Shown here one piece after another: positions 21,469 to 31,670 of a stretch of DNA of 64,000 nucleotides. Under the pieces are notes generated by a model, which was given only the letters and a program-made list of their open reading frames with translations, was not told where the DNA came from and searched no databases. The DNA lies in the NCBI GenBank assembly GCA_965660445.1, contig CBFIAK010000001.1:96001-160000 (forward strand), in the 5' to 3' direction. The position numbers and the translations under genes were made by a program. This DNA comes from Patescibacteria group bacterium (GTDB taxonomy: Bacteria; Patescibacteriota; Gracilibacteria; UBA4473). How positions within the stretch are numbered: position 1 is the first letter of the stretch; each line of letters opens with the position of its first letter.

Positions 21469-22179
21469 TTAATAAGAAGAAAAACGCAGTTCAAGTTGTT
21501 CTTTAATGACTTTCCAATTGTGACATCTTGAAGTCAAAAATCGGTAATATTCAGGACTATGATTTTGATATTTCATATGGCAAAGTTCATGCGTAATCAC
21601 ATAATCAATGCATTCTTTAGAAGCCTTTATAAGTTCTGGATTGAGTAAAACCTTTTTTTTCGTCAAAAAACTTCCCCAACGTTTTGGCATTTTTCGGATA
21701 GAAAGCTCCGGAGTAAAATCGTAATTGAATTTCTTTAACATCTGTCGATATCGCTCTTCAAATATTGATTGAGCTCTTTCTTCGTACCATTTGTCGAGCA
21801 ATTCCTTATTTCTGTGAGAATCTGTTACCGATCCGATCGTATGGAGAATTATTTTTCCACTTTCAAAATAAACCTGATCTTGGTCTGATTTTTCCACAAC
21901 AAGCTTGTACTGTCGCCCAAGGTATAACAAAGATTCTCCAGAGATATACTCCTTATTTTTATTGCTCCTCTGCAGTCTTTTGATGTCTTTTACTTGAGCT
22001 GTAATCCAACCACATTTTCGTGTCAAAAAGTTGATAATCTTATCTTCGGGGTGACCATTCGGAACATATAAAACAATCTTCAAATTCGGATACACAGTAA
22101 GGCGAAGCGTTTTCCGCTCCTCTCTGACCAAATAGTATTGGTATTTATAGTCTCCGTAATGAAAGGGTGTTGGTTCCAT
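21469..22179 (-). CDS. M48/YgjP-like (DUF45) metallopeptidase associated with type I R-M
   Basis: RWGS, DYVITHELCH..NHSPEY; overlaps hsdR stop. Confidence 0.9.
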   Translation of the reverse strand: MEPTPFHYGDYKYQYYLVREERKTLRLTVYPNLKIVLYVPNGHPEDKIINFLTRKCGWITAQVKDIKRLQRSNKNKEYISGESLLYLGRQYKLVVEKSDQDQVYFESGKIILHTIGSVTDSHRNKELLDKWYEERAQSIFEERYRQMLKKFNYDFTPELSIRKMPKRWGSFLTKKKVLLNPELIKASKECIDYVITHELCHMKYQNHSPEYYRFLTSRCHNWKVIKEQLELRFSSY

Positions 22180-25100
22180 TAGAATAATTCGTGGTTTTCG
22201 AGTGCCAAACTAATGACTAAATCAAGGATGGAAGCAAGTTCTTCATGAGTAAGATCTAAATCCATATTGAGTTTCACTTCATCGTACAGATAGTCATCAA
22301 TCTTATTCTTAATAATTCTTTGGGTGTCAGATTGTTTGTGCCAGTCAATAATGGTTTCTTTTTTGAGTATCCCAAATACGTCCAAAATAATCTTACATAC
22401 TTGTTCATCATTGAGTCCCAATGCTACAAATCGATCCTTTAAATTTCTGTAAAAAATATCTGCTCCTTTGGCATTTTGTAAGATTTCAGGCAATTGATCA
22501 TCTTCTTTATTAACCATTTTCTCCCGAGCCTCTCTTAGTCTTTTAAGAGCTTCTATGTCTGCCATTTTACCCTCCCGCATTTTTTTCAAAATATCTTGAA
22601 TCTTATCTGAAAATCTTCGGTAAAATTCAGGATCGGTATCTGCCTTTTCGGTAATGGTTCGTTGCATTTGTGAGGCAATCGCTTCGGCTTTTGATTTTGG
22701 CGTCCCTAATGTTTCAAGAGCTTGCTCAAAAGCCTCTGAATCATTTATATTTATCGGTTCAGTGAGCAATTCTACTTTATCGGCATCAATGTATTCATCT
22801 AAAATCTTAACCAGTTGTTTCTTGTATTCAGAAAGGTCTTTTCTATCTGCAAATTTAATCTGACTTGATTTTCGGAGTTCTGCATATCTCTTGAGTTCGA
22901 GCTTATAGGTATCAATGTGTAGGAACCGTGCCGAAAAATCAGGCAATGACATACATTCATCTAGATTTCGAATGAAAGCATTAAAAAGGCTATAAAAATC
23001 ATTTCGTCGTTGTTCTCCTGCTTCCTCAGTGCCCAAAAACTCTAGATAGCTCTCTGTGTCTTTTTTGTTTTTTACGGTCTTAAAGTGCCCTTCAAGATTT
23101 GAATACGCTTGTTCTAGTTCGGATATCTTTTGAGTGGTATCGATCAATGTTCCTTTTACGTCTTCTTCATCAAAGTTCCCAAAGAGTTCCATTGCTGACT
23201 TAATATTCTGGGCATTCTCTGAATAGTCGATGATAAACCCTGCCGTTTTCGGCTTGTCTTTGTTTTCATAGAGTCGATTTACTCGAGCGATAGCCTGCAA
23301 AAGGTTGTGATCTTTGAGGTCTTTGGTGAGGTAAAGTACCGTATTTCGTGGAGCATCAAATCCAGTCAGAAGTTTGTCTACTACAATCAATATTTCAATT
23401 CCATCTGGATCATTTTTAAAGCTTTCTGTGACAGCTTTTTCATAACTCTCTAAATCTCTGTAGTCAGATGATTTTTTCTTTAGGAAATCAGATACTTCTC
23501 GTTTGTGGCTATCGGTTTCATCATCGTGTGCTTGAGCTTCTGATATTACCACTGCAGTGCGGAGCCTTTGTCCTTCTTCGAATACTTTTTGAAACAGTAA
23601 GGCAGAATATTTTGAAGGAGCTACCAATTGAGCCTTGAGTCCTGTTCCTTGGAAATAACTTCGAAAGTGATCTTCGATATCATATGCAATCTCCGTAATC
23701 CGATGAGGATTGTTTTTGATTACTTTTTGATTAATAAATCGTTGTAAATCTTTTACCGAATCAGGATCAAGTCCTGCGGTGATTCGTTCTACATGACGAT
23801 CTACTTTCTCTTTATTCTGATTGAGTTCGGTATATCGCCCTTCATAGATTAAGGGTAGAACTATCCCGTCTTCGAGTGCATCATCAATCGTATATTTATC
23901 AATAAATCCACCAAAACGATTGTGCGATTTATCATTTTTGAGAAGTGGCGTTCCCGTAAACCCAATAAAACACGCATTTGGAATCATCCGTCGCATTTCT
24001 TCACTTGCCATTCCGTATTGTGTTCGATGGGCTTCATCAATAAGTACAAAGATATTTTCGTCTTTATCTGCAAAACTTCCTCGTTTTTTGCTGAGACTAT
24101 CAAATTTATGTACGAGAGATGTGATAACCGCAGGATTTTTTTCTTTCAGTAATTTTAAAAGTTGATTTCCATTCTTTGTTTTAATGACGTCCTTTTTGAG
24201 ATTACAGTTCTTGAACGTATTTGAAATCTGTCGATCCAAATCGACTCGATCGGTGATAATCAAAATTCGAGGATTGATGAGTTCTGGATTTTCGATCAAT
24301 GCTTTTACAAAAAGCACCATCGTTAAAGATTTCCCCGATCCCTGCGTATGCCAGACGATTCCTCCTTGTCTCTTTTCTCCCTCTACGCCCTTTTCTTTCA
24401 GAGAAACTCGTTTAAGCATTTTACTAATCGCAAAGTACTGCTGGTATCGAGCAATTTTCTTTGTCCCACCGTCAAAGAGCATAAAGTATCGTGTCAAATT
24501 GAGAAGCCGATCTGGTCGTAAAATACAGTACAGCGTACGATCTTGCTTGGTCGTCAGCCGATCTGTAAGCTGACGATGATTGAGGGTTACCCCATTCATA
24601 TCCGTGCACATGATTCTGTAAATTTCTGAGTCAATATGTGTATGGATATGTTTTTGGATTTCTGTATCAAGGACATCCAAATCAGTTTCTTTCTCTTTCC
24701 ACGAAGCATAAAACTTCGTCGGGGTTCCCGTCGTTCCGTATAAACATTCCTCCACATTGGTTCCGATCAAAAGCTGAGGATACACAAAGAATTTTGGTGA
24801 ATACTCCGGTTTTTGATTTCGGTTCATTTGATTGAGTGCGTCTTTTACTTCGGTGCCTGATTTTTTGTTTTCAATTACCACGAAAGGAATCCCGTTTACA
24901 TAACACACGATATCGGGACGAATATTTTCATTTTTCCCATTCACAGGTACTTCAACCGCTACATGAAAGCTATTGTTTTTTGGATTCTGGAAATCAATAA
25001 ATCGAAAGTTTTGTGAAGAAGGTTTTCCATCAATCATAACGGGGAAAGTTTTTCCGCCTTCGGTCATGATAAGGTGATAGACTTCTTTGGCGGTGTCTTG

Positions 25101-25364
25101 AAGCCCATGAACTTGGATGTTTTCAAGTTCTTCAATCGCATCCCACACATTCTTATCACTAAAAGGATATATCTCCCCTTTGTATTCAAAGTGATTGATT
25201 TTCTTCAGGCTTTCAAAGGCAATATTCTTGAGGATAAATTTTCCATTCTCTTCTCGGCGTTGCTTTTTGAGTTCTTCGCACGAGAGATACGTGTACCCCA
25301 TATTGATCAGGAGTTCTACGGCAGGGAGTTGGGATTGTCGGGCTTCGTCAAAATTAGCTTGCAT
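22179..25364 (-). CDS. hsdR: Type I restriction endonuclease subunit R
   Basis: RPDIVCYVNGIPFVVIENK nuclease, WHTQGSGKS, IDEAHR, GFTGTP, QAIARVNR. Confidence 0.96.
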   Translation of the reverse strand: MQANFDEARQSQLPAVELLINMGYTYLSCEELKKQRREENGKFILKNIAFESLKKINHFEYKGEIYPFSDKNVWDAIEELENIQVHGLQDTAKEVYHLIMTEGGKTFPVMIDGKPSSQNFRFIDFQNPKNNSFHVAVEVPVNGKNENIRPDIVCYVNGIPFVVIENKKSGTEVKDALNQMNRNQKPEYSPKFFVYPQLLIGTNVEECLYGTTGTPTKFYASWKEKETDLDVLDTEIQKHIHTHIDSEIYRIMCTDMNGVTLNHRQLTDRLTTKQDRTLYCILRPDRLLNLTRYFMLFDGGTKKIARYQQYFAISKMLKRVSLKEKGVEGEKRQGGIVWHTQGSGKSLTMVLFVKALIENPELINPRILIITDRVDLDRQISNTFKNCNLKKDVIKTKNGNQLLKLLKEKNPAVITSLVHKFDSLSKKRGSFADKDENIFVLIDEAHRTQYGMASEEMRRMIPNACFIGFTGTPLLKNDKSHNRFGGFIDKYTIDDALEDGIVLPLIYEGRYTELNQNKEKVDRHVERITAGLDPDSVKDLQRFINQKVIKNNPHRITEIAYDIEDHFRSYFQGTGLKAQLVAPSKYSALLFQKVFEEGQRLRTAVVISEAQAHDDETDSHKREVSDFLKKKSSDYRDLESYEKAVTESFKNDPDGIEILIVVDKLLTGFDAPRNTVLYLTKDLKDHNLLQAIARVNRLYENKDKPKTAGFIIDYSENAQNIKSAMELFGNFDEEDVKGTLIDTTQKISELEQAYSNLEGHFKTVKNKKDTESYLEFLGTEEAGEQRRNDFYSLFNAFIRNLDECMSLPDFSARFLHIDTYKLELKRYAELRKSSQIKFADRKDLSEYKKQLVKILDEYIDADKVELLTEPININDSEAFEQALETLGTPKSKAEAIASQMQRTITEKADTDPEFYRRFSDKIQDILKKMREGKMADIEALKRLREAREKMVNKEDDQLPEILQNAKGADIFYRNLKDRFVALGLNDEQVCKIILDVFGILKKETIIDWHKQSDTQRIIKNKIDDYLYDEVKLNMDLDLTHEELASILDLVISLALENHELF

Positions 25365-25366
25365 AG

Positions 25367-25972
25367 TCAGATAGTGGTTATTTGTTCTAAAATATTAGCT
25401 TTCGGGTTTATCATATATTTCAAATATTCAATAATGATTTCCCGAATTTTTTCATGGTTGTAGGTCAGTATCTGTTCATAGTGAAAAATTCTATTTCGAA
25501 ATTTTCTTATACGATCAAGATCTGTAGATATTTGTCCGAATTTAATCTTTTTTGTATTCGGAAAAACATGTTTTAATGTTGAATTTTTCCAAATATCTTG
25601 AGCATAGGCTTTATCACAAAGAGATGTCCAAAATCCAAAATTTAATTCCGATATCATTGTATCAACATTTAAATCTTTTTTATCTGCTAATATACGCTCA
25701 TATGCTTGCTCTAATTTTCCTTTATGTCTTGCATGTAAAACATTATTTGCAAAATAAGAAGAAGGGGCATACCAATCTTCCCAATTTTTATTGAGATGTT
25801 TTGCTATTTTATTTCGTAAGATTATTTCTGTAAAATGCATTAAATGATAGAATTTCTGTGATATTCGTATATTTTTTGTATAAACTTCAAATGGAGATAC
25901 TCCAGATTCTTCAGCTTTTCTAATGTAGAATTCGGCTCTTTTCTCTGATATTAATTTCTGTAAATCTTTCAT
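25367..25972 (-). CDS. Abi_2/AbiF-like HEPN-domain protein (putative RNase toxin)
   Basis: EIILRN, ELNFGFWTSL, and Rx4H HEPN motif RNRIFH. Confidence 0.8.
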   Translation of the reverse strand: MKDLQKLISEKRAEFYIRKAEESGVSPFEVYTKNIRISQKFYHLMHFTEIILRNKIAKHLNKNWEDWYAPSSYFANNVLHARHKGKLEQAYERILADKKDLNVDTMISELNFGFWTSLCDKAYAQDIWKNSTLKHVFPNTKKIKFGQISTDLDRIRKFRNRIFHYEQILTYNHEKIREIIIEYLKYMINPKANILEQITTI

Positions 25973-26000
25973 TAAATTAAGTGATAAATTCTATAAAACT

Positions 26001-26029
26001 TTGACAACTTAGAATATTTTTCATATAAT
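26001..26029 (+). promoter_or_regulatory. Perfect consensus sigma70 promoter, divergent from the Abi gene
   Basis: TTGACA-17 nt-TATAAT. Confidence 0.85.
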
Positions 26030-26035
26030 AAGCTT

Positions 26036-26123
26036 AGCATAATCCAGGATTCTTCCTTGCAAATAGCCTCTTGGGGGCTTAAAATAGCCCAAGTTCTCAT
26101 CGCAATAGATACCTGGATTTTTT
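26036..26123 (+). ncRNA. Putative structured small RNA (candidate antitoxin of the HEPN protein)
   Basis: Nested stems AATCCAGG/CCTGGATT, TTGC/GCAA, CTTGGG/CCCAAG; ends in T-run; no ORF. Confidence 0.65.
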
Positions 26124-26129
26124 GTATGT

Positions 26130-27314
26130 TCATTGTTTTGGCATGGTTAGATTTTCGGGAGTTCGAATCTGTCCTGTGATCAGGTTATTGAGCAGATATT
26201 TTTTTTGATCTTCGAGTATTTGTTTTTTCTTTTCGAGGGCGGTGATTTCTTCATCAACTGTCGTGAGGATTTGAGCAATGGCAGTTTGTTCTTCTATATC
26301 AGGCAATTTAATAGTCAAGTATTGATATTCAGATAGATATTTCCGCTTGTGTTCACCTACTATAAAATTTACAAGTTGCATTCTCTCGTAGATAAATTTG
26401 ATATTAAATTTTGAATTGTCCTTTGATCGTAAAAGTTTCATTGCTGATGATTTCACCTTGAACTCAAAATCAACAAACTTATTCGCTGTAGTGAAATCAT
26501 CAAAAATAATTACAGGCAAATTTGTACAGATGCCATCTGTTTCATTTGTGTAGCCAAGAATAAAGCTTTTTCCAGCAGTTAGCACAGGCGTTTTATTTAA
26601 GTCATCATATTGATCACTATCTACTATGTATTTCTGAGGTTGTTCATAACCTAAAACCTCTCCAAGTTCATAGTTTCTCCACTCATCATTAAATCCCTTC
26701 AATCGCCTTTTCCCCGTCAACAACTCCTGCATCAATCCTTTTTTGATGTTTTTCTTGAGTTCGATTTTTCGCGTGAGTTTTTCGATGGATTTGTCCCATG
26801 TTTCGAGGATTGTGACGATGCGGTGTTGTTCGGGGATAGGTGGGACTTTTATTGTTGTGTCTTGAATTTTTGTTGGAGAAGTGTGTCGTACTTTTGTTCC
26901 AGATGCAGTTGCAGATATCTCACTTCTGAATCTCTTCGTCTTGAACGCAAAAAACAAAAACTCTTTGATGCAATTCTTTTTTATTTCAACTAATCCCAGA
27001 CGTTGATTATGTAGAAAGCGATTACTATCAGGTATTATGGCAGCACTCCCCAAAAGTCCTTCCTTTTGCTCGGTCATGGCAATTATTACATCACCCTTAT
27101 TTAAAAGGTATTGCTTCGGGAATTCTCCTGTATAAAATCGATCTTTTTCTCCCCTAAACTTAAAGCCGCCTTCTTCGTAAAAATTCCCTGGAGTTAATAA
27201 TATAAAATCACCTCTTTCTGAAAAAAACTGGCTAGAAAAGGCAAAACCATGCTTAATTTCAATAAGCTCTCCTAATTTCACCTGTTTCCAATCTGTCGGA
27301 ATGGGGTTATTCAT
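26130..27314 (-). CDS. hsdS: Type I R-M specificity subunit (two TRDs)
   Basis: IPTDWKQVKLGE, PPIPEQHRIV, KKGLMQELLTGK, PDIEEQTAIA. Confidence 0.95.
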   Translation of the reverse strand: MNNPIPTDWKQVKLGELIEIKHGFAFSSQFFSERGDFILLTPGNFYEEGGFKFRGEKDRFYTGEFPKQYLLNKGDVIIAMTEQKEGLLGSAAIIPDSNRFLHNQRLGLVEIKKNCIKEFLFFAFKTKRFRSEISATASGTKVRHTSPTKIQDTTIKVPPIPEQHRIVTILETWDKSIEKLTRKIELKKNIKKGLMQELLTGKRRLKGFNDEWRNYELGEVLGYEQPQKYIVDSDQYDDLNKTPVLTAGKSFILGYTNETDGICTNLPVIIFDDFTTANKFVDFEFKVKSSAMKLLRSKDNSKFNIKFIYERMQLVNFIVGEHKRKYLSEYQYLTIKLPDIEEQTAIAQILTTVDEEITALEKKKQILEDQKKYLLNNLITGQIRTPENLTMPKQ

Positions 27315-28326
27315 GGTTATTCCAAATGTTAGCAGTACGATAATCATACAGGTGTAGAATCTTCTGTTTCGCAGGCGTTTTATCTCTATTAAACCCAGCT
27401 ATTCGTGAACGAATTTTTTCAACATCTGGGGAATCTTCACGAGAAACTCCCAAGAATATATTCTTTACTGTTCCTTGTAATAGCCCATCCAAAATATGAT
27501 TATCATTATCTTTTAAGTAAGTCCCCAAAATCACTAAATCTCGATTCACTTCTTTTAAACACCTATAACAATGGTTTAGGTAACCATTATGGATTATTTT
27601 TGTCATTTTTTGAGAACTATCACCCTCTGAGATAAAAACGGGGTAAATCCCTGATGATAAACTATTTCGAACCTGTGTAATAAGCTCAATTCCAGAATTT
27701 TTATATGTTTTTTTAATGATTTGATCTCCTGCATCAAAAAGATGAAGAGCTCCATGAAGGTAGTGTACCTTGAAACTTCGTTTGTTTTTGTAAACAACAT
27801 ATCCTTCATGCTCACTATCTTCATCATTTCCAAATCCGTCCGTAAATTCTGTTTCTTCCGAAGAGGAGTGAATTACAGACCAATACAAGAGAAGGTCATA
27901 ATTCAAGGTAAAAATTTTATCAAAATTCCTCAAAAAAGTGACACATGAATCCTTCTTTTTGGCATCGATATCCGTAGAATTTGTTGGATGATTATTTGTA
28001 ATAATCGTTACCAAATATTCTTTAAGATTATCTGCATCATCCAACAACTGTTTTCTTAGGTTGGGATCTGCCTCATAAACATCAACTACTTTTTCTGTCT
28101 CATTTAATATTCTCATCACACTTTCAAAATCTGCAGTCTCAAGTTTTTGAAAAACCTTATAAACGTAGCTATCTTTTTCGATAATTTTATCCGCAACTGC
28201 AGACTCAAGAAGAGTTGTAAAAGAGAATCTCTCAGGTTCGTATGCCATACTAAAACCATTCCCCAGCAATACATGGGGATTGTTTGCTTGCTCAATAACT
28301 TGATCAAATGTGAGTAATGGGGTCAT
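27307..28326 (-). CDS. DUF4917 family (SIR2-like fold) protein
   Basis: HVLLGNGFS, FTLNYDLLLYW, DGFG, YLHGALHLF. Confidence 0.8.
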   Translation of the reverse strand: MTPLLTFDQVIEQANNPHVLLGNGFSMAYEPERFSFTTLLESAVADKIIEKDSYVYKVFQKLETADFESVMRILNETEKVVDVYEADPNLRKQLLDDADNLKEYLVTIITNNHPTNSTDIDAKKKDSCVTFLRNFDKIFTLNYDLLLYWSVIHSSSEETEFTDGFGNDEDSEHEGYVVYKNKRSFKVHYLHGALHLFDAGDQIIKKTYKNSGIELITQVRNSLSSGIYPVFISEGDSSQKMTKIIHNGYLNHCYRCLKEVNRDLVILGTYLKDNDNHILDGLLQGTVKNIFLGVSREDSPDVEKIRSRIAGFNRDKTPAKQKILHLYDYRTANIWNNHE

Positions 28327-28331
28327 GAGTT

Positions 28332-30155
28332 TTAAAATTTCAGAGCTGCTAAAAGTTTTTTGATCCTTTCCTTTGATTCATCATCAAGTTCAATTTTTTC
28401 TGTGCTTACTTTTTGTAAAAATAACCGAGCCAACAGGACTTTGTCTTTCTTTTGTTTCGAAACATACGCGGAGCTTTTTGTCGTGTATTTTGCCTTCTCA
28501 TTCCCCAAAACAAATTTCTTGAAATCCTGAATACTGAGAATGTCCTCAATTGCATCGCCCTCTTCTCCTGTAACTGCTTTTATTAAATCAGGACTTACAT
28601 GAAATGATTCCAGCCTTTTTTCTCCCTGATCTTTTCCGCTGTCATTGTCGAAAAGATATAAAACTTCAGCTCCCCATCCTTCGAGAATTGTTCCTACAAA
28701 TCCCATATTTGGAGCACCGCCTCCGTTAATAAAGTTGATATTTGTTTTGCTTGATGAAAGTTTTTTAAAGGCTTGCAAATAAAATACATCTGCAGGGCCT
28801 TCAACTACCACGTTCTTTTTTTGATCGATATTTAGAATAGAGTCATTAACCCCCAAACCAATAGCTGTTAGCACCGGAGTGAGAGTTTCTTTACTTGCTT
28901 CATTGTGAGCGTGAATTTTTCCCAAAATTTTACTCCCTTCAACATTGTCTTTTTTCTCAACAAGCCGAACAGCTTCCAGGTTCTCCGGTTCGATCAAATA
29001 GGGAGAATGAGTAGAGAAAAGTACTGGATAATTAGATCCATGTTCTCTAAGGACTTTTAATAAATCTTTTTGTGCTTTTGCGTGCAGATACAATCCAGGT
29101 TCATCAATGAGTATTATATTTGGTTTCCCATCTCTTATACGTGCTACGATCTTAACGTAAAAACTCAAATACCATTGCTGCCCCTTGCTCCGTTGAGATG
29201 GATAGTATTGTTTATCGTTCTCAACAATCCAAAAATTAACTTTTTCTCCATCTCTCTTGACCTCTAGTTTTATGGCATCTTGGGTCCAGAATTGTTTGAA
29301 CTTGTCGGTAAAATCAATATTAACAGCCCGCTCGTGATTTCCTCTCTCTTGAATATTGGTAGATTTGATTTTCTTGATATCAACCTGGCTCACTTCCTGT
29401 AAATCTTTTGCCCACTCATCATTTTCAAGAGCAGAAACATCTATTGATTGTGGGAACTCATCTTCAAAAGATGAGAAAAGTATGAAATAAGGAAGCTTTG
29501 ATGAGACAAATTTTTCTATAAAGTCCGTACAAAGCTTTTCCCTTGCAAAATATTGATCTATTGCGTCAATGACTGCCTCAGCCTTTTCATTGAGACCGTT
29601 TTTTTCTTCTGCACTGAAACCATGTGCCTGAATGTTTGTCTGGAAGCTTTTAATTTCTGTTTTTAAGGCTTTGAATGTTTTCGTTTTATCTAGACTTGGG
29701 ATCGCCAAATTCACAGTGGATCCATCTACGATTTTTTTAAGTTGCCCTAATCCATTTAGGACAATTTTTTTCTGTGGAAAATATATTAACTCTAGTCCTA
29801 AGGCCTTTCGAGACTCTAAATCCAAAATGTATTTCTTTTCTCCATAAGATTTTCTTAGGGAAATTTCTGTCTTTTTTGAAACACTTGATTCAAATCCTAT
29901 TTCACCAAATATCTCATTAATTTCCTTACTTGTTAGACTAAATGTAACAGATATTTCAGGATCTTCTTCTGAGTTTATTGATTTTGCTTCTTCTCGTATT
30001 TCATTGTTTTCGTGAAAATCTTCCAACGCTTCAAGTATAGAAGTTTTCCCTGACTCATTTTTCCCCGCCAATATGGTAAGACCTTTACTAAAATAACAGT
30101 CATTTGAGTCAACAATAGATTTATAGTTTTTGATTCTGAATTTAATAACTTCCAT
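28332..30155 (-). CDS. OLD-like ABC ATPase + TOPRIM nuclease
   Basis: GKNESGKTS Walker A, RSKG signature, LIDEPGLYLH, STHSPY; TOPRIM VVEGPAD and FDND. Confidence 0.87.
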   Translation of the reverse strand: MEVIKFRIKNYKSIVDSNDCYFSKGLTILAGKNESGKTSILEALEDFHENNEIREEAKSINSEEDPEISVTFSLTSKEINEIFGEIGFESSVSKKTEISLRKSYGEKKYILDLESRKALGLELIYFPQKKIVLNGLGQLKKIVDGSTVNLAIPSLDKTKTFKALKTEIKSFQTNIQAHGFSAEEKNGLNEKAEAVIDAIDQYFAREKLCTDFIEKFVSSKLPYFILFSSFEDEFPQSIDVSALENDEWAKDLQEVSQVDIKKIKSTNIQERGNHERAVNIDFTDKFKQFWTQDAIKLEVKRDGEKVNFWIVENDKQYYPSQRSKGQQWYLSFYVKIVARIRDGKPNIILIDEPGLYLHAKAQKDLLKVLREHGSNYPVLFSTHSPYLIEPENLEAVRLVEKKDNVEGSKILGKIHAHNEASKETLTPVLTAIGLGVNDSILNIDQKKNVVVEGPADVFYLQAFKKLSSSKTNINFINGGGAPNMGFVGTILEGWGAEVLYLFDNDSGKDQGEKRLESFHVSPDLIKAVTGEEGDAIEDILSIQDFKKFVLGNEKAKYTTKSSAYVSKQKKDKVLLARLFLQKVSTEKIELDDESKERIKKLLAALKF

Positions 30156-30158
30156 AGT

Positions 30159-31670
30159 TTATTGAATATTAAGTTCTTTAAGATATTGAGCCATTTGCCC
30201 CTCTAGCTTCTCAATCTCTGGCTCAAGCTCCGCCAACTCCTTTAAATTCGCTGAAATATCGATCGCTTCCTCTTCCTCAAAGGTATCTACATATCTCGTA
30301 ATATTGAGATTGTAGTCATTTTCTTTGATCTCATTAGCTTGAACAATTCTAGAAAATTTATCGATTTCTTTTCGCTTGGCATAGGTTTCGTAAATCTTGT
30401 CCGAGTTCTCTTCCGAAAGTGTATTTTGTGCTTTTCCCGAAACAAATTCTTTGCTTGCCTCAATAAAGAGGATGTCTTTTTTGTCTTCATTTGCACCACC
30501 TACTTCACGTGAGCGATCAAGAATCAAAATCGCCACAGGAATACCTGTTGTCTGGAAAAGTCCTGCAGGCAGACCAATGACCGCATCAATGAGATTTTCC
30601 TCAAGTAGTTGCTGACGAATTTTCCTTTCAGCCCCTCCACGGAAAAGAACTCCATGGGGTACAATTACTGCCACACGCCCCGTTTTGGGTTTTACGGTTT
30701 CGATCATGTGCGTGATGAAGGCAAAGTCTCCCTTGTCTTTTGGTGGTACTCCGCGATGAAAACGATTGTATGGGTCTGAATCCGCATTTTCTGCCCCCCA
30801 CTTCTTTAAGCTGAAGGGCGGGTTTGCCACACAAACATCAAATTGCATCAATTGGTCATTTTCAACCAATTGTGGATTGTTCAGTGTGTCTCCCCATTCA
30901 ATTCGAGCAGAATCTTGGTTGTGCAAAAACATATTCATCCGAGCCAGCTGGAAAGTACTCCCTGTGGATTCTTGTCCATATAGGGCGTAATTTTTTGAAC
31001 CGTCGTTTTTTTCTACTTCTTCCCCCGTCATAAGAAGAAGTCCCCCAGACCCCATCGCAGGATCACATATCCTTGCCCCATCTTTTGGTTGTGCGAGTCG
31101 AGCAAGCAATTGGGCAACTGATTTCACGGTGAAAAATTCTCCCGCTTTTTTCCCTGCGTCCGCACCAAACTTTTCAATGAGGTACATGTACGAATTCCCG
31201 ATCACATCTTCATTAATTTTCGTAAGATCGATCTTGTGAAAATCATGAATGAGGTGCCGAAGCATTTTGTTCCGAGATTCTAATTTCCCGAGTCGACTTT
31301 CTGAATTGAAATCAAGCGAGGTCAAAAGTCCTTCCAGTTTTTCTTTATTGCTATCTTCAATCTTATGAAAGGCTTTATTGAGCTCTTGTCCGATACTGTC
31401 GGTTTCTATTTTTTGATAAATCTCATCAAAGGATGTCCCTTCTGGAAGATAAAAACGATCCATTTTCATTTTTTCTCGAATACGAGTTTCATCCGCCCCA
31501 TATCTTTCTTTATATTTTTCATGCTGAACCTTTGAAAGATCGCTCAAATACTTATAGAAAAGCATTGCGAGTACGTAGTCTTTGTAAACTCCCCCGTCCA
31601 ATGTCGTCCGAGACGAATCAGCCGCATTCCAGAGGATTTTGTTGAGATGTTCTTGGGTGATAGTGGTCAT
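30159..31670 (-). CDS. hsdM: Type I R-M methyltransferase subunit M
   Basis: AGEFFT, DPAMGSGGLL, ANPPFS, PHGVLFRG, YNLNITRY. Confidence 0.96.
   Translation of the reverse strand: MTTITQEHLNKILWNAADSSRTTLDGGVYKDYVLAMLFYKYLSDLSKVQHEKYKERYGADETRIREKMKMDRFYLPEGTSFDEIYQKIETDSIGQELNKAFHKIEDSNKEKLEGLLTSLDFNSESRLGKLESRNKMLRHLIHDFHKIDLTKINEDVIGNSYMYLIEKFGADAGKKAGEFFTVKSVAQLLARLAQPKDGARICDPAMGSGGLLLMTGEEVEKNDGSKNYALYGQESTGSTFQLARMNMFLHNQDSARIEWGDTLNNPQLVENDQLMQFDVCVANPPFSLKKWGAENADSDPYNRFHRGVPPKDKGDFAFITHMIETVKPKTGRVAVIVPHGVLFRGGAERKIRQQLLEENLIDAVIGLPAGLFQTTGIPVAILILDRSREVGGANEDKKDILFIEASKEFVSGKAQNTLSEENSDKIYETYAKRKEIDKFSRIVQANEIKENDYNLNITRYVDTFEEEEAIDISANLKELAELEPEIEKLEGQMAQYLKELNIQ

Follow-up and report, generated by a model that had tools for sequence, protein, structure and literature searches.

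A conserved hairpin RNA element, probably an opposite-strand antitoxin gene, beside a PD-T4-5-like HEPN gene in a type I restriction-modification operon of a Patescibacteria bacterium

What lies between hsdS and the HEPN-domain abortive-infection (Abi) gene in a type I restriction-modification (R-M) operon of a Patescibacteria group bacterium, and does it belong with that gene? The operon is part of the 64,000-nucleotide (nt) stretch analyzed here (assembly GCA_965660445.1, contig CBFIAK010000001.1, positions 96,001 to 160,000), which we call the window and by whose own coordinates all features are given. A first-pass annotation, made from the letters of the window, had proposed that the gap holds a separately promoted, structured small RNA (sRNA) serving as antitoxin to a divergent AbiF-family HEPN RNase. 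HEPN/Abi_2 toxins with RNA antitoxins have been a defined class only since 2024-2025, and they are proposed Cas13 ancestors. On balance, we think that the locus is probably a type III-like toxin/RNA-antitoxin abortive-infection cassette with a free-standing sRNA encoded antisense to its toxin gene, the evidence being a conserved and covarying hairpin that accompanies this protein family across phyla, with a promoter and a terminator-like T-run on the strand opposite the gene.

The gap measures 157 bp as had been claimed, and a perfect TTGACA-17-TATAAT promoter, also claimed at first pass, can be read directly from its sequence on the strand opposite the R-M operon (Table 1). It is the sole exact consensus match in the window, where base composition leads one to expect about 0.04 per 64 kb, and the only one of 28 promoter-like sites between 21000 and 33000 to score 12/12. 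A lone consensus promoter is not significant over a scan of many windows, and it is the comparative data that lend it weight. Downstream of it stands a nested hairpin, whose closing stem P1 pairs AATCCAGG (26041-26048) with CCTGGATT (26112-26119) and is followed by a 2-bp helix, whose stem P2 pairs TTGCAA (26057-26062) with TCGCAA (26100-26105), and whose apical stem P3 pairs CTTGGG (26070-26075) with CCCAAG (26088-26093). The hairpin runs into a T-run shortly before the hsdS stop codon, just as first described. Judged from the spacing, the sRNA would start at about 26036, 7 nt past the -10 box, and end in or after the T-run. The segment 26001-26123 thus has on a single strand the parts of an intrinsically terminated sRNA gene: promoter, short leader, GC-closed hairpin and U-run. 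Both strands fold stably: the + strand reaches -27.3 kcal/mol (z -2.9), a value matched by 2 of 200 shuffles, and the - strand reaches -30.7 kcal/mol (z -3.6), matched by none of 200. No Rfam family matches the element in the region 24000-28000, at gathering thresholds or at E<=10, and the TRF program run over 25000-26600 returned only a trivial 15-nt repeat, so that the hairpin is single, with no ToxI-like array. Two other identities of the hairpin were considered and rejected: an hsdS terminator, for which the T/U run is on the wrong side of the hsdS strand, and a genome-wide repeat, as the hairpin element, like the Abi gene, is single copy in the 0.99-Mb genome.

The question of which strand carries the RNA was approached by comparison. 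Homologue loci numbering 159 were fetched, for 79 of 147 relatives from species-representative genomes and 80 of 222 from metagenomes, and 151 of these loci are non-identical. Read on the Abi-gene strand, the module has an A-run and the hairpin, then some 10 nt to an ATTATA-like box and 17 nt more to TGTCAA; the opposite strand shows the order -35 box, spacer, -10 box, short leader, hairpin and T-run. A symmetric search of both strands, from 230 nt upstream to 170 nt downstream of the Abi gene, was made for complete units, defined as a sigma-70 promoter (<=2 mismatches) or the Bacteroidota TAnnTTTG box standing 4-20 nt before a hairpin with a T-run. Complete units occur on the strand opposite the Abi gene at 101 of the 151 non-identical loci (81 upstream and 21 downstream, one locus having both) and on the Abi-gene strand at none, against a background elsewhere in the same loci of 54 in 4884 windows (1.1%). 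The distance from promoter end to hairpin is 9-12 nt in 93 of the 102 units. Near-consensus sigma-70 promoters by themselves show the same bias, with antisense examples at 36 loci upstream and 25 downstream versus 7 and 5 in sense orientation. The separate promoter proposed at first pass, facing away from the Abi gene and into a hairpin with a T-run, is therefore a recurrent arrangement among the homologues.

Bacteroidota, as Bayley et al. reportedly noted in 2000, are without TTGACA/TATAAT promoters. Of their 59 unique modules, 53 carry an antisense TAnnTTTG (-7) box that precedes the hairpin by 8-10 nt, where 0.008 per module would be expected, and all 59 have a T-run (an A-run on the gene strand). 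A sense-strand TAnnTTTG is also present in 33 of the 59, and in 27 of these it is 21-25 nt before the Abi ATG, giving back-to-back promoters. The Edwardsiella, E. coli IncC and Aeromonas pAsa4c plasmids (L166, L171 and L172, respectively) have an antisense unit of about 125 nt with three hairpins: a -10 box (TATACT or TACAAT) is followed by the class hairpin, then by another hairpin and a GC-rich terminator-like one, the last of which has a clear T-run in L171 and L172 and a weak one in L166. In the E. coli copy (L171, 389-589 region), the last stem contains an antisense G.U that corresponds to an A.C mismatch on the sense strand.

From these patterns, we consider it likely that the RNA is transcribed from the strand opposite the Abi gene. 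Several observations weigh against this assignment, and some of them would suit a different account, in which the functional RNA is a gene-sense hairpin within the Abi mRNA (its 5' leader here and its 3' untranslated region elsewhere), perhaps cut out by the RNase, and the opposite promoter is secondary or regulatory. Minimum free energy by strand is near-neutral across hairpin classes, with the gene strand slightly favored in the window class, where the core folds at -27.7 kcal/mol on that strand and -23.4 on the other, and where an invariant gene-strand G.U in P2 would turn into A.C, a mismatch, in the + strand RNA. On the gene strand, the hairpin of Campylobacterota has the layout of the abiF motif (P1, 1-nt bulge, P2, 5-6-nt 3' bulge), and read-through from hsdS would make a hairpin RNA in the window. 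Passages of PMC12373285 and bioRxiv 10.1101/2024.05.05.592566 place the RNA of the characterized HEPN type III systems, AbiF/RCd22 and AbiV, upstream on the toxin-gene strand. Fifty of the 151 loci are without a complete unit, including the alphaproteobacterial L001 and L148, whose antisense promoters look weak by eye; the loci are phylogenetically related, so that the counts overstate independence; and transcription of the + strand is deduced from sequence alone. Comparison of wobble pairs by strand adds weight to neither side, the helices being almost purely Watson-Crick (in class B, 347 Watson-Crick pairs with one G.U on the antisense strand and none on the sense strand).

Such a near-absence of G.U pairs, seen in the helices of all hairpin classes (for classes B and M, e.g. 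L010 3884-3938), is unusual for structured RNA; both strands may need to fold, or sequence diversity may simply be low.

A gene-sense RNA is nevertheless difficult to reconcile with the absence of any complete unit on the gene strand among the same 151 loci that yielded 101 on the other, and with the lack of a U-run past the hairpin on the sense strand. Where the sense TAnnTTTG of the 33 Bacteroidota modules lies between hairpin and ATG, the Abi mRNA would begin downstream of the hairpin and would not include it, and in the gammaproteobacterial plasmids the sense strand has only about 14 nt between an upstream terminator and the RNA region, too few to accommodate a promoter. We regard the gene-sense account as rather unlikely.

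Conservation of the hairpin itself is best seen between the window and L036, the closest locus for which DNA was compared, which comes from a metagenome-assembled genome (MAG) of the Peregrinibacteria and encodes a protein with about 50% identity (partly masked); the nearest five relatives by protein (P0003-P0007, 56-65% identical) lie outside the set of DNA loci. The L036 hairpin is 59 nt upstream of the Abi homologue and identical to that of the window at 77 of 81 positions, and the flanks are unalignable. Around it are a tRNA and genes of the DUF1499 and DUF924 families, with no R-M system. In L001 and L148, with proteins 38-39% identical to that of the window, the hairpin is still recognizably homologous. 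These four loci make up the window class (about 80 nt), for which RNAalifold gives 21 pairs in four helices with 97.6% of cells paired. Compensatory changes on both sides occur in 9 of the 21 pairs, in a small sample of four sequences from about three lineages, and shifting the structure by 1-3 columns leaves no more than 2 such pairs; the covarying structure that the first-pass annotation had proposed to look for beside homologues is thus present.

Most of the 159 loci carry a hairpin adjoining the Abi gene, so that comparison with about 150 homologue loci supports the conserved structured RNA expected at first pass, and the hairpin classes track the protein clades. Besides the window class, we distinguish a class of about 41-45 nt in Bacteroidota, with related forms in Melainabacteria/Gastranaerophilales and gammaproteobacterial plasmids, one of about 36 nt in Campylobacterota, and one of about 65 nt in an alphaproteobacterial/gut-MAG group. 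In a 20-sequence alignment of Bacteroidota, Melainabacteria and Gammaproteobacteria, P1 and P2 covary and two internal loops are conserved, UCCUCUC and GAUGA on the antisense RNA. The pairing of hairpin and protein family is constant across phyla, with hairpins adjoining homologues in Chitinophagaceae and other Bacteroidota, Campylobacterota, Melainabacteria, Alpha- and Gammaproteobacteria and Peregrinibacteria, and upstream of the gene in all six plasmids inspected (E. coli IncC, Aeromonas, Edwardsiella, Xanthomonas, Agrobacterium and Acinetobacter). No Rfam family matches the hairpin modules in related loci (14 + 16 + 6), including at E<=10. A Flavobacteriales MAG also encodes a DUF805 RNA (RF03081, 70.3 bits; L003 5224-5293, + strand), probably unrelated, some 600 nt downstream of its Abi homologue.

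A covariance model built from the window class finds its four sources strongly and other loci only weakly. All 27 of its matches are on the Abi-gene strand, the strand on which the model was built, and therefore the orientation of the element relative to the gene is constant. Its position is not. The unit is divergent from and upstream of the Abi gene in most clades, whereas in Melainabacteria it is convergent and follows the Abi stop codon, within a cassette between the gpU/gpX and gpD tail genes of P2-like prophages, and in an alphaproteobacterial group it is downstream, between the Abi gene and a convergent priA. A variable position with constant orientation fits an RNA acting in trans. Taken together, the element's own promoter and terminator, its switching of sides and its change with the protein clade are best read as those of a trans-acting protein partner, and a switch in the 5' leader fits less well.

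The pair is also mobile, as the word 'cassette' in the first-pass annotation implied: it occurs outside R-M systems in L036, on plasmids and in the tails of P2-like prophages (L057 3192-5709 and L031 3198-5712, with no other Abi gene neighboring), and in the window its G+C content is 27-30% versus about 35-40% in the flanking R-M genes. PLSDB has 542 plasmids with a homologue, and 7 phage records also carry one. In 400 further genomes sampled per phylum, the window's phylum gave two marginal matches (E 3e-5 and 6e-4), none close, and L036's phylum gave no homologue at E<=1e-8. A scan of viral contigs with the pattern gave no matches, a scan of viral proteins gave three distant loci, and the Edwardsiella locus, when searched against E. 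coli genomes, matched just a 37-nt stretch.

Could the sRNA instead regulate at the level of nucleic acids, either as a cis-antisense RNA on the hsdS-Abi-hsdR mRNA or through transcriptional interference by its strong promoter, in the manner of a type I system? The window sRNA would be fully complementary to the intercistronic part of an hsdS read-through transcript, divergent arrangements have the sRNA -35 box abutting or overlapping the Abi start region, the -7 boxes of Bacteroidota are back to back, and nearly all-Watson-Crick helices could fold on both strands. No sigma-70-like minus-strand promoter for Abi scoring at least 9/12 was found within the hsdS-Abi gap. Overlap with the Abi mRNA, however, is not conserved between the divergent upstream and convergent downstream arrangements, the hairpin class changes with the protein clade, and the conserved UCCUCUC and GAUGA loops suggest recognition by a protein over simple antisense pairing. 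As the whole explanation, regulation of this kind is improbable in our view. Antisense or interference effects on Abi/hsdR expression are a real secondary possibility, because the + promoter faces read-through from hsdS and the gap has no such minus-strand promoter. With the hsdR ATG coming 2 nt after the Abi stop codon (25362-25369), hsdR expression may also need transcription, and perhaps translation, through the cassette past the opposing sRNA promoter.

That the hairpin is a terminator, an insulator or an inverted repeat left in the DNA by an insertion, with the consensus promoter there by chance, is very unlikely. An exact consensus is indeed to be expected by chance over many windows at 0.04 in each, the region is AT-rich, and a T-run does follow the hairpin near the hsdS stop. 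The hsdS strand, on the other hand, has an A-run before the hairpin and no U-run after it, the hairpin is 95% identical in the unrelated context of L036 and covaries, and promoters of two different types recur across phyla at the same spacing.

One part of the first description was inaccurate. The hairpin, described as free of open reading frames (ORFs), stood up to analysis as a hairpin, yet a 53-aa minus-strand ORF fills the gap, its ends overlapping the stop codon of hsdS (ATGA) and the start codon of Abi (TAATG). We judged it spurious, an artefact of the RNA element, because it has no homologue but itself among 5.8 billion proteins and because in L036 its frame closes right after the hairpin and its N-terminal part is absent, despite 95% nucleotide conservation. 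It also has no Pfam or PADLOC match, and in the stretch of frame shared by the window and L036, 2 of 5 differences are synonymous (read by eye). According to passages of bioRxiv 10.1101/2024.05.05.592566, the abiV2 RNA, which is upstream of AbiV and inhibits it, was likewise first taken for a small ORF. A small protein antitoxin, translationally coupled to hsdS and Abi, would account for the exact overlaps and for a stop-free frame of 53 codons, somewhat unusual in AT-rich DNA, and is with these results extremely improbable.

The partner of the RNA is a 201-aa protein with an intact Rx4H motif, R159-N-R-I-F-H164, as the first-pass annotation had stated; in a 39-sequence family alignment, R159, N160 and H164 are invariant, together with E49, R53 and N54. 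Its own match to Pfam Abi_2 (PF07751) is weak (E 8e-4, 20.2 bits, under the 25.6-bit gathering cut-off) and is a point against the assignment, as are a Foldseek search of the PDB that returned no HEPN entry (best E 1.6, TM about 0.2; Foldseek is weak on all-alpha folds), PDB sequence and profile searches with no match at E<=10, and an insignificant hhalign comparison with phiC2 AbiF (1.3% probability). Membership in the Abi_2 superfamily is supported through relatives, because 28 of the 39 family members match Abi_2 at E<=0.01 (best 9.8e-10). The PADLOC profile PD-T4-5 (PDLC04038) matches the window protein over residues 6-199 (E 6.6e-9) and all 39 family members (best 3e-23); AbiD is matched by 10 of the 39, and the PADLOC AbiV profile does not match the 201-aa protein. 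The AlphaFold2 model is all-helical, with a mean predicted local distance difference test (pLDDT) score of 93.6, and a homodimer is predicted with a score of 0.83, versus 0.00 for the best control, a mark that 20 of 30 homodimers and 1 of 23 monomers of solved structure attain in calibration. The runs agree in at least 97% of contacts with a partner pLDDT of at least 88. As the predicted interface includes residues 163-165 and 49-54, it fits a composite HEPN active site in which two Rx4H motifs would meet. The protein is a member of the PD-T4-5-like branch of the Abi_2/HEPN superfamily and not demonstrably AbiF in the strict sense, so that of the 'divergent AbiF-family member' first proposed, the HEPN Abi_2-like gene stands and strict AbiF membership does not.

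Among known systems, the AbiF pairs offer the closest comparison. [quoted passage not shown] In common with these systems (RCd22 of C. difficile phi027/phiC2 and PbAbiF-AbiFr), the locus has a small Abi_2-superfamily Rx4H HEPN protein, here a predicted homodimer, a short conserved hairpin RNA adjoining the gene, and a mobile, defense-island or prophage context; a single hairpin without a tandem array also holds for both AbiF and AbiV. A flank better conserved than the gene, as here, is reported for lactococcal AbiD/F in passages of PMC13064643. The locus differs from AbiF in that RF03085, the abiF motif for which an Rfam check had been suggested at first pass, is unmatched at E<=10 in the window and related loci, while the positive control, phiC2 27065-27100, scored 37.6 bits on the abiF strand. 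It differs further in its RNA, which by sequence is encoded opposite the gene, has a promoter and terminator to itself and sometimes lies downstream, and in its protein of 201 aa versus 287 aa, with no detectable similarity to phiC2 AbiF or PDB chains. The system would work like AbiF/AbiV type III pairs but appears to lack two AbiF-defining features, the RF03085 motif and a same-strand upstream RNA.

Lactococcal AbiV is likewise a 201-aa HEPN RNase whose adjacent RNA antitoxin was first annotated as a small ORF, to be compared with the 53-aa ORF here, but its abiV2 RNA is about 296 nt long and upstream on the same strand. The best hidden Markov model match of the window protein, PD-T4-5, is according to passages of Vassallo et al. 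2022 (PMC9519451) a plasmid-borne, validated abortive-infection gene of E. coli, toxin-antitoxin-like and distantly related to AbiF/D, and those passages describe no partner RNA or antitoxin. We found no description of an opposite-strand RNA partner of this family in the literature covered, to which supplements and Zilberzwige-Tal et al. 2025 (Cell) did not belong, so that a prior description is possible; abiF is not mentioned in the main text of Weinberg et al. 2017.

In the mechanism that we propose, the HEPN homodimer, with its Rx4H motifs meeting at the interface, would be an RNase toxin. The sRNA gene, composed of a sigma-70 promoter, a 4-6-nt leader, a hairpin of about 80 nt with conserved internal loops and a U-tail, would produce the sRNA constitutively from its strong promoter, and the sRNA would bind the dimer and block its RNase site, as AbiFr/RCd22 do for AbiF. 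If a phage halts host transcription or degrades RNA, the labile sRNA would not be renewed, the RNase would be released and growth would stop, in an abortive infection. An antitoxin role for the hairpin RNA is suggested by analogy with AbiF/RCd22 and AbiV, and binding of RNA to protein, RNase activity and phage defense would follow the same pattern. Guegler and Laub reportedly found in 2021 that ToxIN is activated by phage-induced transcription shut-off. The proposed logic is like that of ToxIN/AbiQ, in which an RNase toxin is restrained by a labile RNA needing continuous transcription, and the locus is unlike ToxIN/AbiQ in having no tandem antitoxin repeats, a different toxin fold and its RNA on the opposite strand.

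Table 1. Features of the locus in coordinates of the 64-kb window; all genes are on the minus strand, and families were assigned by Pfam and PADLOC
Feature	Coordinates	Strand	Basis and remarks
YgjP-like metallopeptidase	21469-22179	-	1-base overlap with hsdR end
hsdR	22179-25364	-	Pfam HSDR_N, SWI2_SNF2, T1R_D3-like
201-aa Abi_2/PD-T4-5-like HEPN protein, putative RNase toxin	25367-25972	-	Translation, Pfam, PADLOC
53-aa ORF, judged not a gene	25972-26133	-	ORF list; fills the hsdS-Abi gap exactly
hsdS-Abi gap, 157 bp	25973-26129	both strands	Sequence
sRNA promoter	26001-26029	+	TTGACA 26001-26006, 17-nt spacer, TATAAT 26024-26029; sequence, equivalents in homologue loci
Predicted sRNA, ~88-90 nt	26036-26125	+	Promoter geometry
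Nested hairpin, ~80 nt	26041-26119	folds on both strands	Starts 11 nt past promoter; folding and comparison
T-run, intrinsic-terminator-like sRNA tail	26118-26123	+	Ends 6 nt ahead of hsdS stop codon (26130-26132)
hsdS	26130-27347	-	Pfam Methylase_S E 4e-29
DUF4917 protein, 339 aa	27307-28326	-	Weak SIR2-like similarity; PADLOC PDC-S21 E 1.9e-107
OLD-family AAA_15 ATPase with TOPRIM, 607 aa	28332-30155	-	PADLOC AriA/Old/GajA-like matches
hsdM	30159-31670	-	Pfam
Half-size hsdS-like ORF, 189 aa	31674-32243	-	Single Methylase_S domain; immediately upstream of hsdM

The predicted RNA gene and the Abi gene are located between hsdS and hsdR of the type I R-M operon, to which the YgjP-like metallopeptidase gene probably also belongs. 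A TTGACA-16-TATACT sequence at 32277-32250 on the minus strand may be the operon promoter. The OLD-family and DUF4917 genes (27307-30155, minus strand), between hsdM and hsdS, resemble a second two-gene candidate defense cassette in the same operon.

Here a genome of about 1 Mb harbors a defense cassette nested within a type I R-M operon. With its roughly 150 relatives, the locus points to a separate branch of RNA-paired HEPN systems, whose RNA is absent from Rfam, has its own opposite-strand promoter and terminator, and can stand on either side of the toxin gene. If this is true, it would explain how single-gene PD-T4-5-like defenses stay non-toxic, give annotators a new RNA family to mark next to hundreds of genes on plasmids, in prophages and in defense islands, set right spurious small ORFs like the 53-aa one, and offer a compact, orthogonal toxin/RNA pair for study. 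We suggest tentatively, as a generalization that could quite conceivably hold, that all PD-T4-5-type HEPN Abi proteins, from bacteria of the Candidate Phyla Radiation to E. coli IncC plasmids and P2-like prophages, may depend on uncatalogued, free-standing opposite-strand hairpin sRNAs of about 55-125 nt, each made from a consensus promoter. With the antitoxin then hanging solely on host RNA polymerase at one strong promoter, each such pair would directly sense phage-induced transcription shut-off, the RNA would supply the missing antitoxin of PD-T4-5, and the family would represent a second, independently organized lineage of RNA partners within the proposed source family of Cas13.

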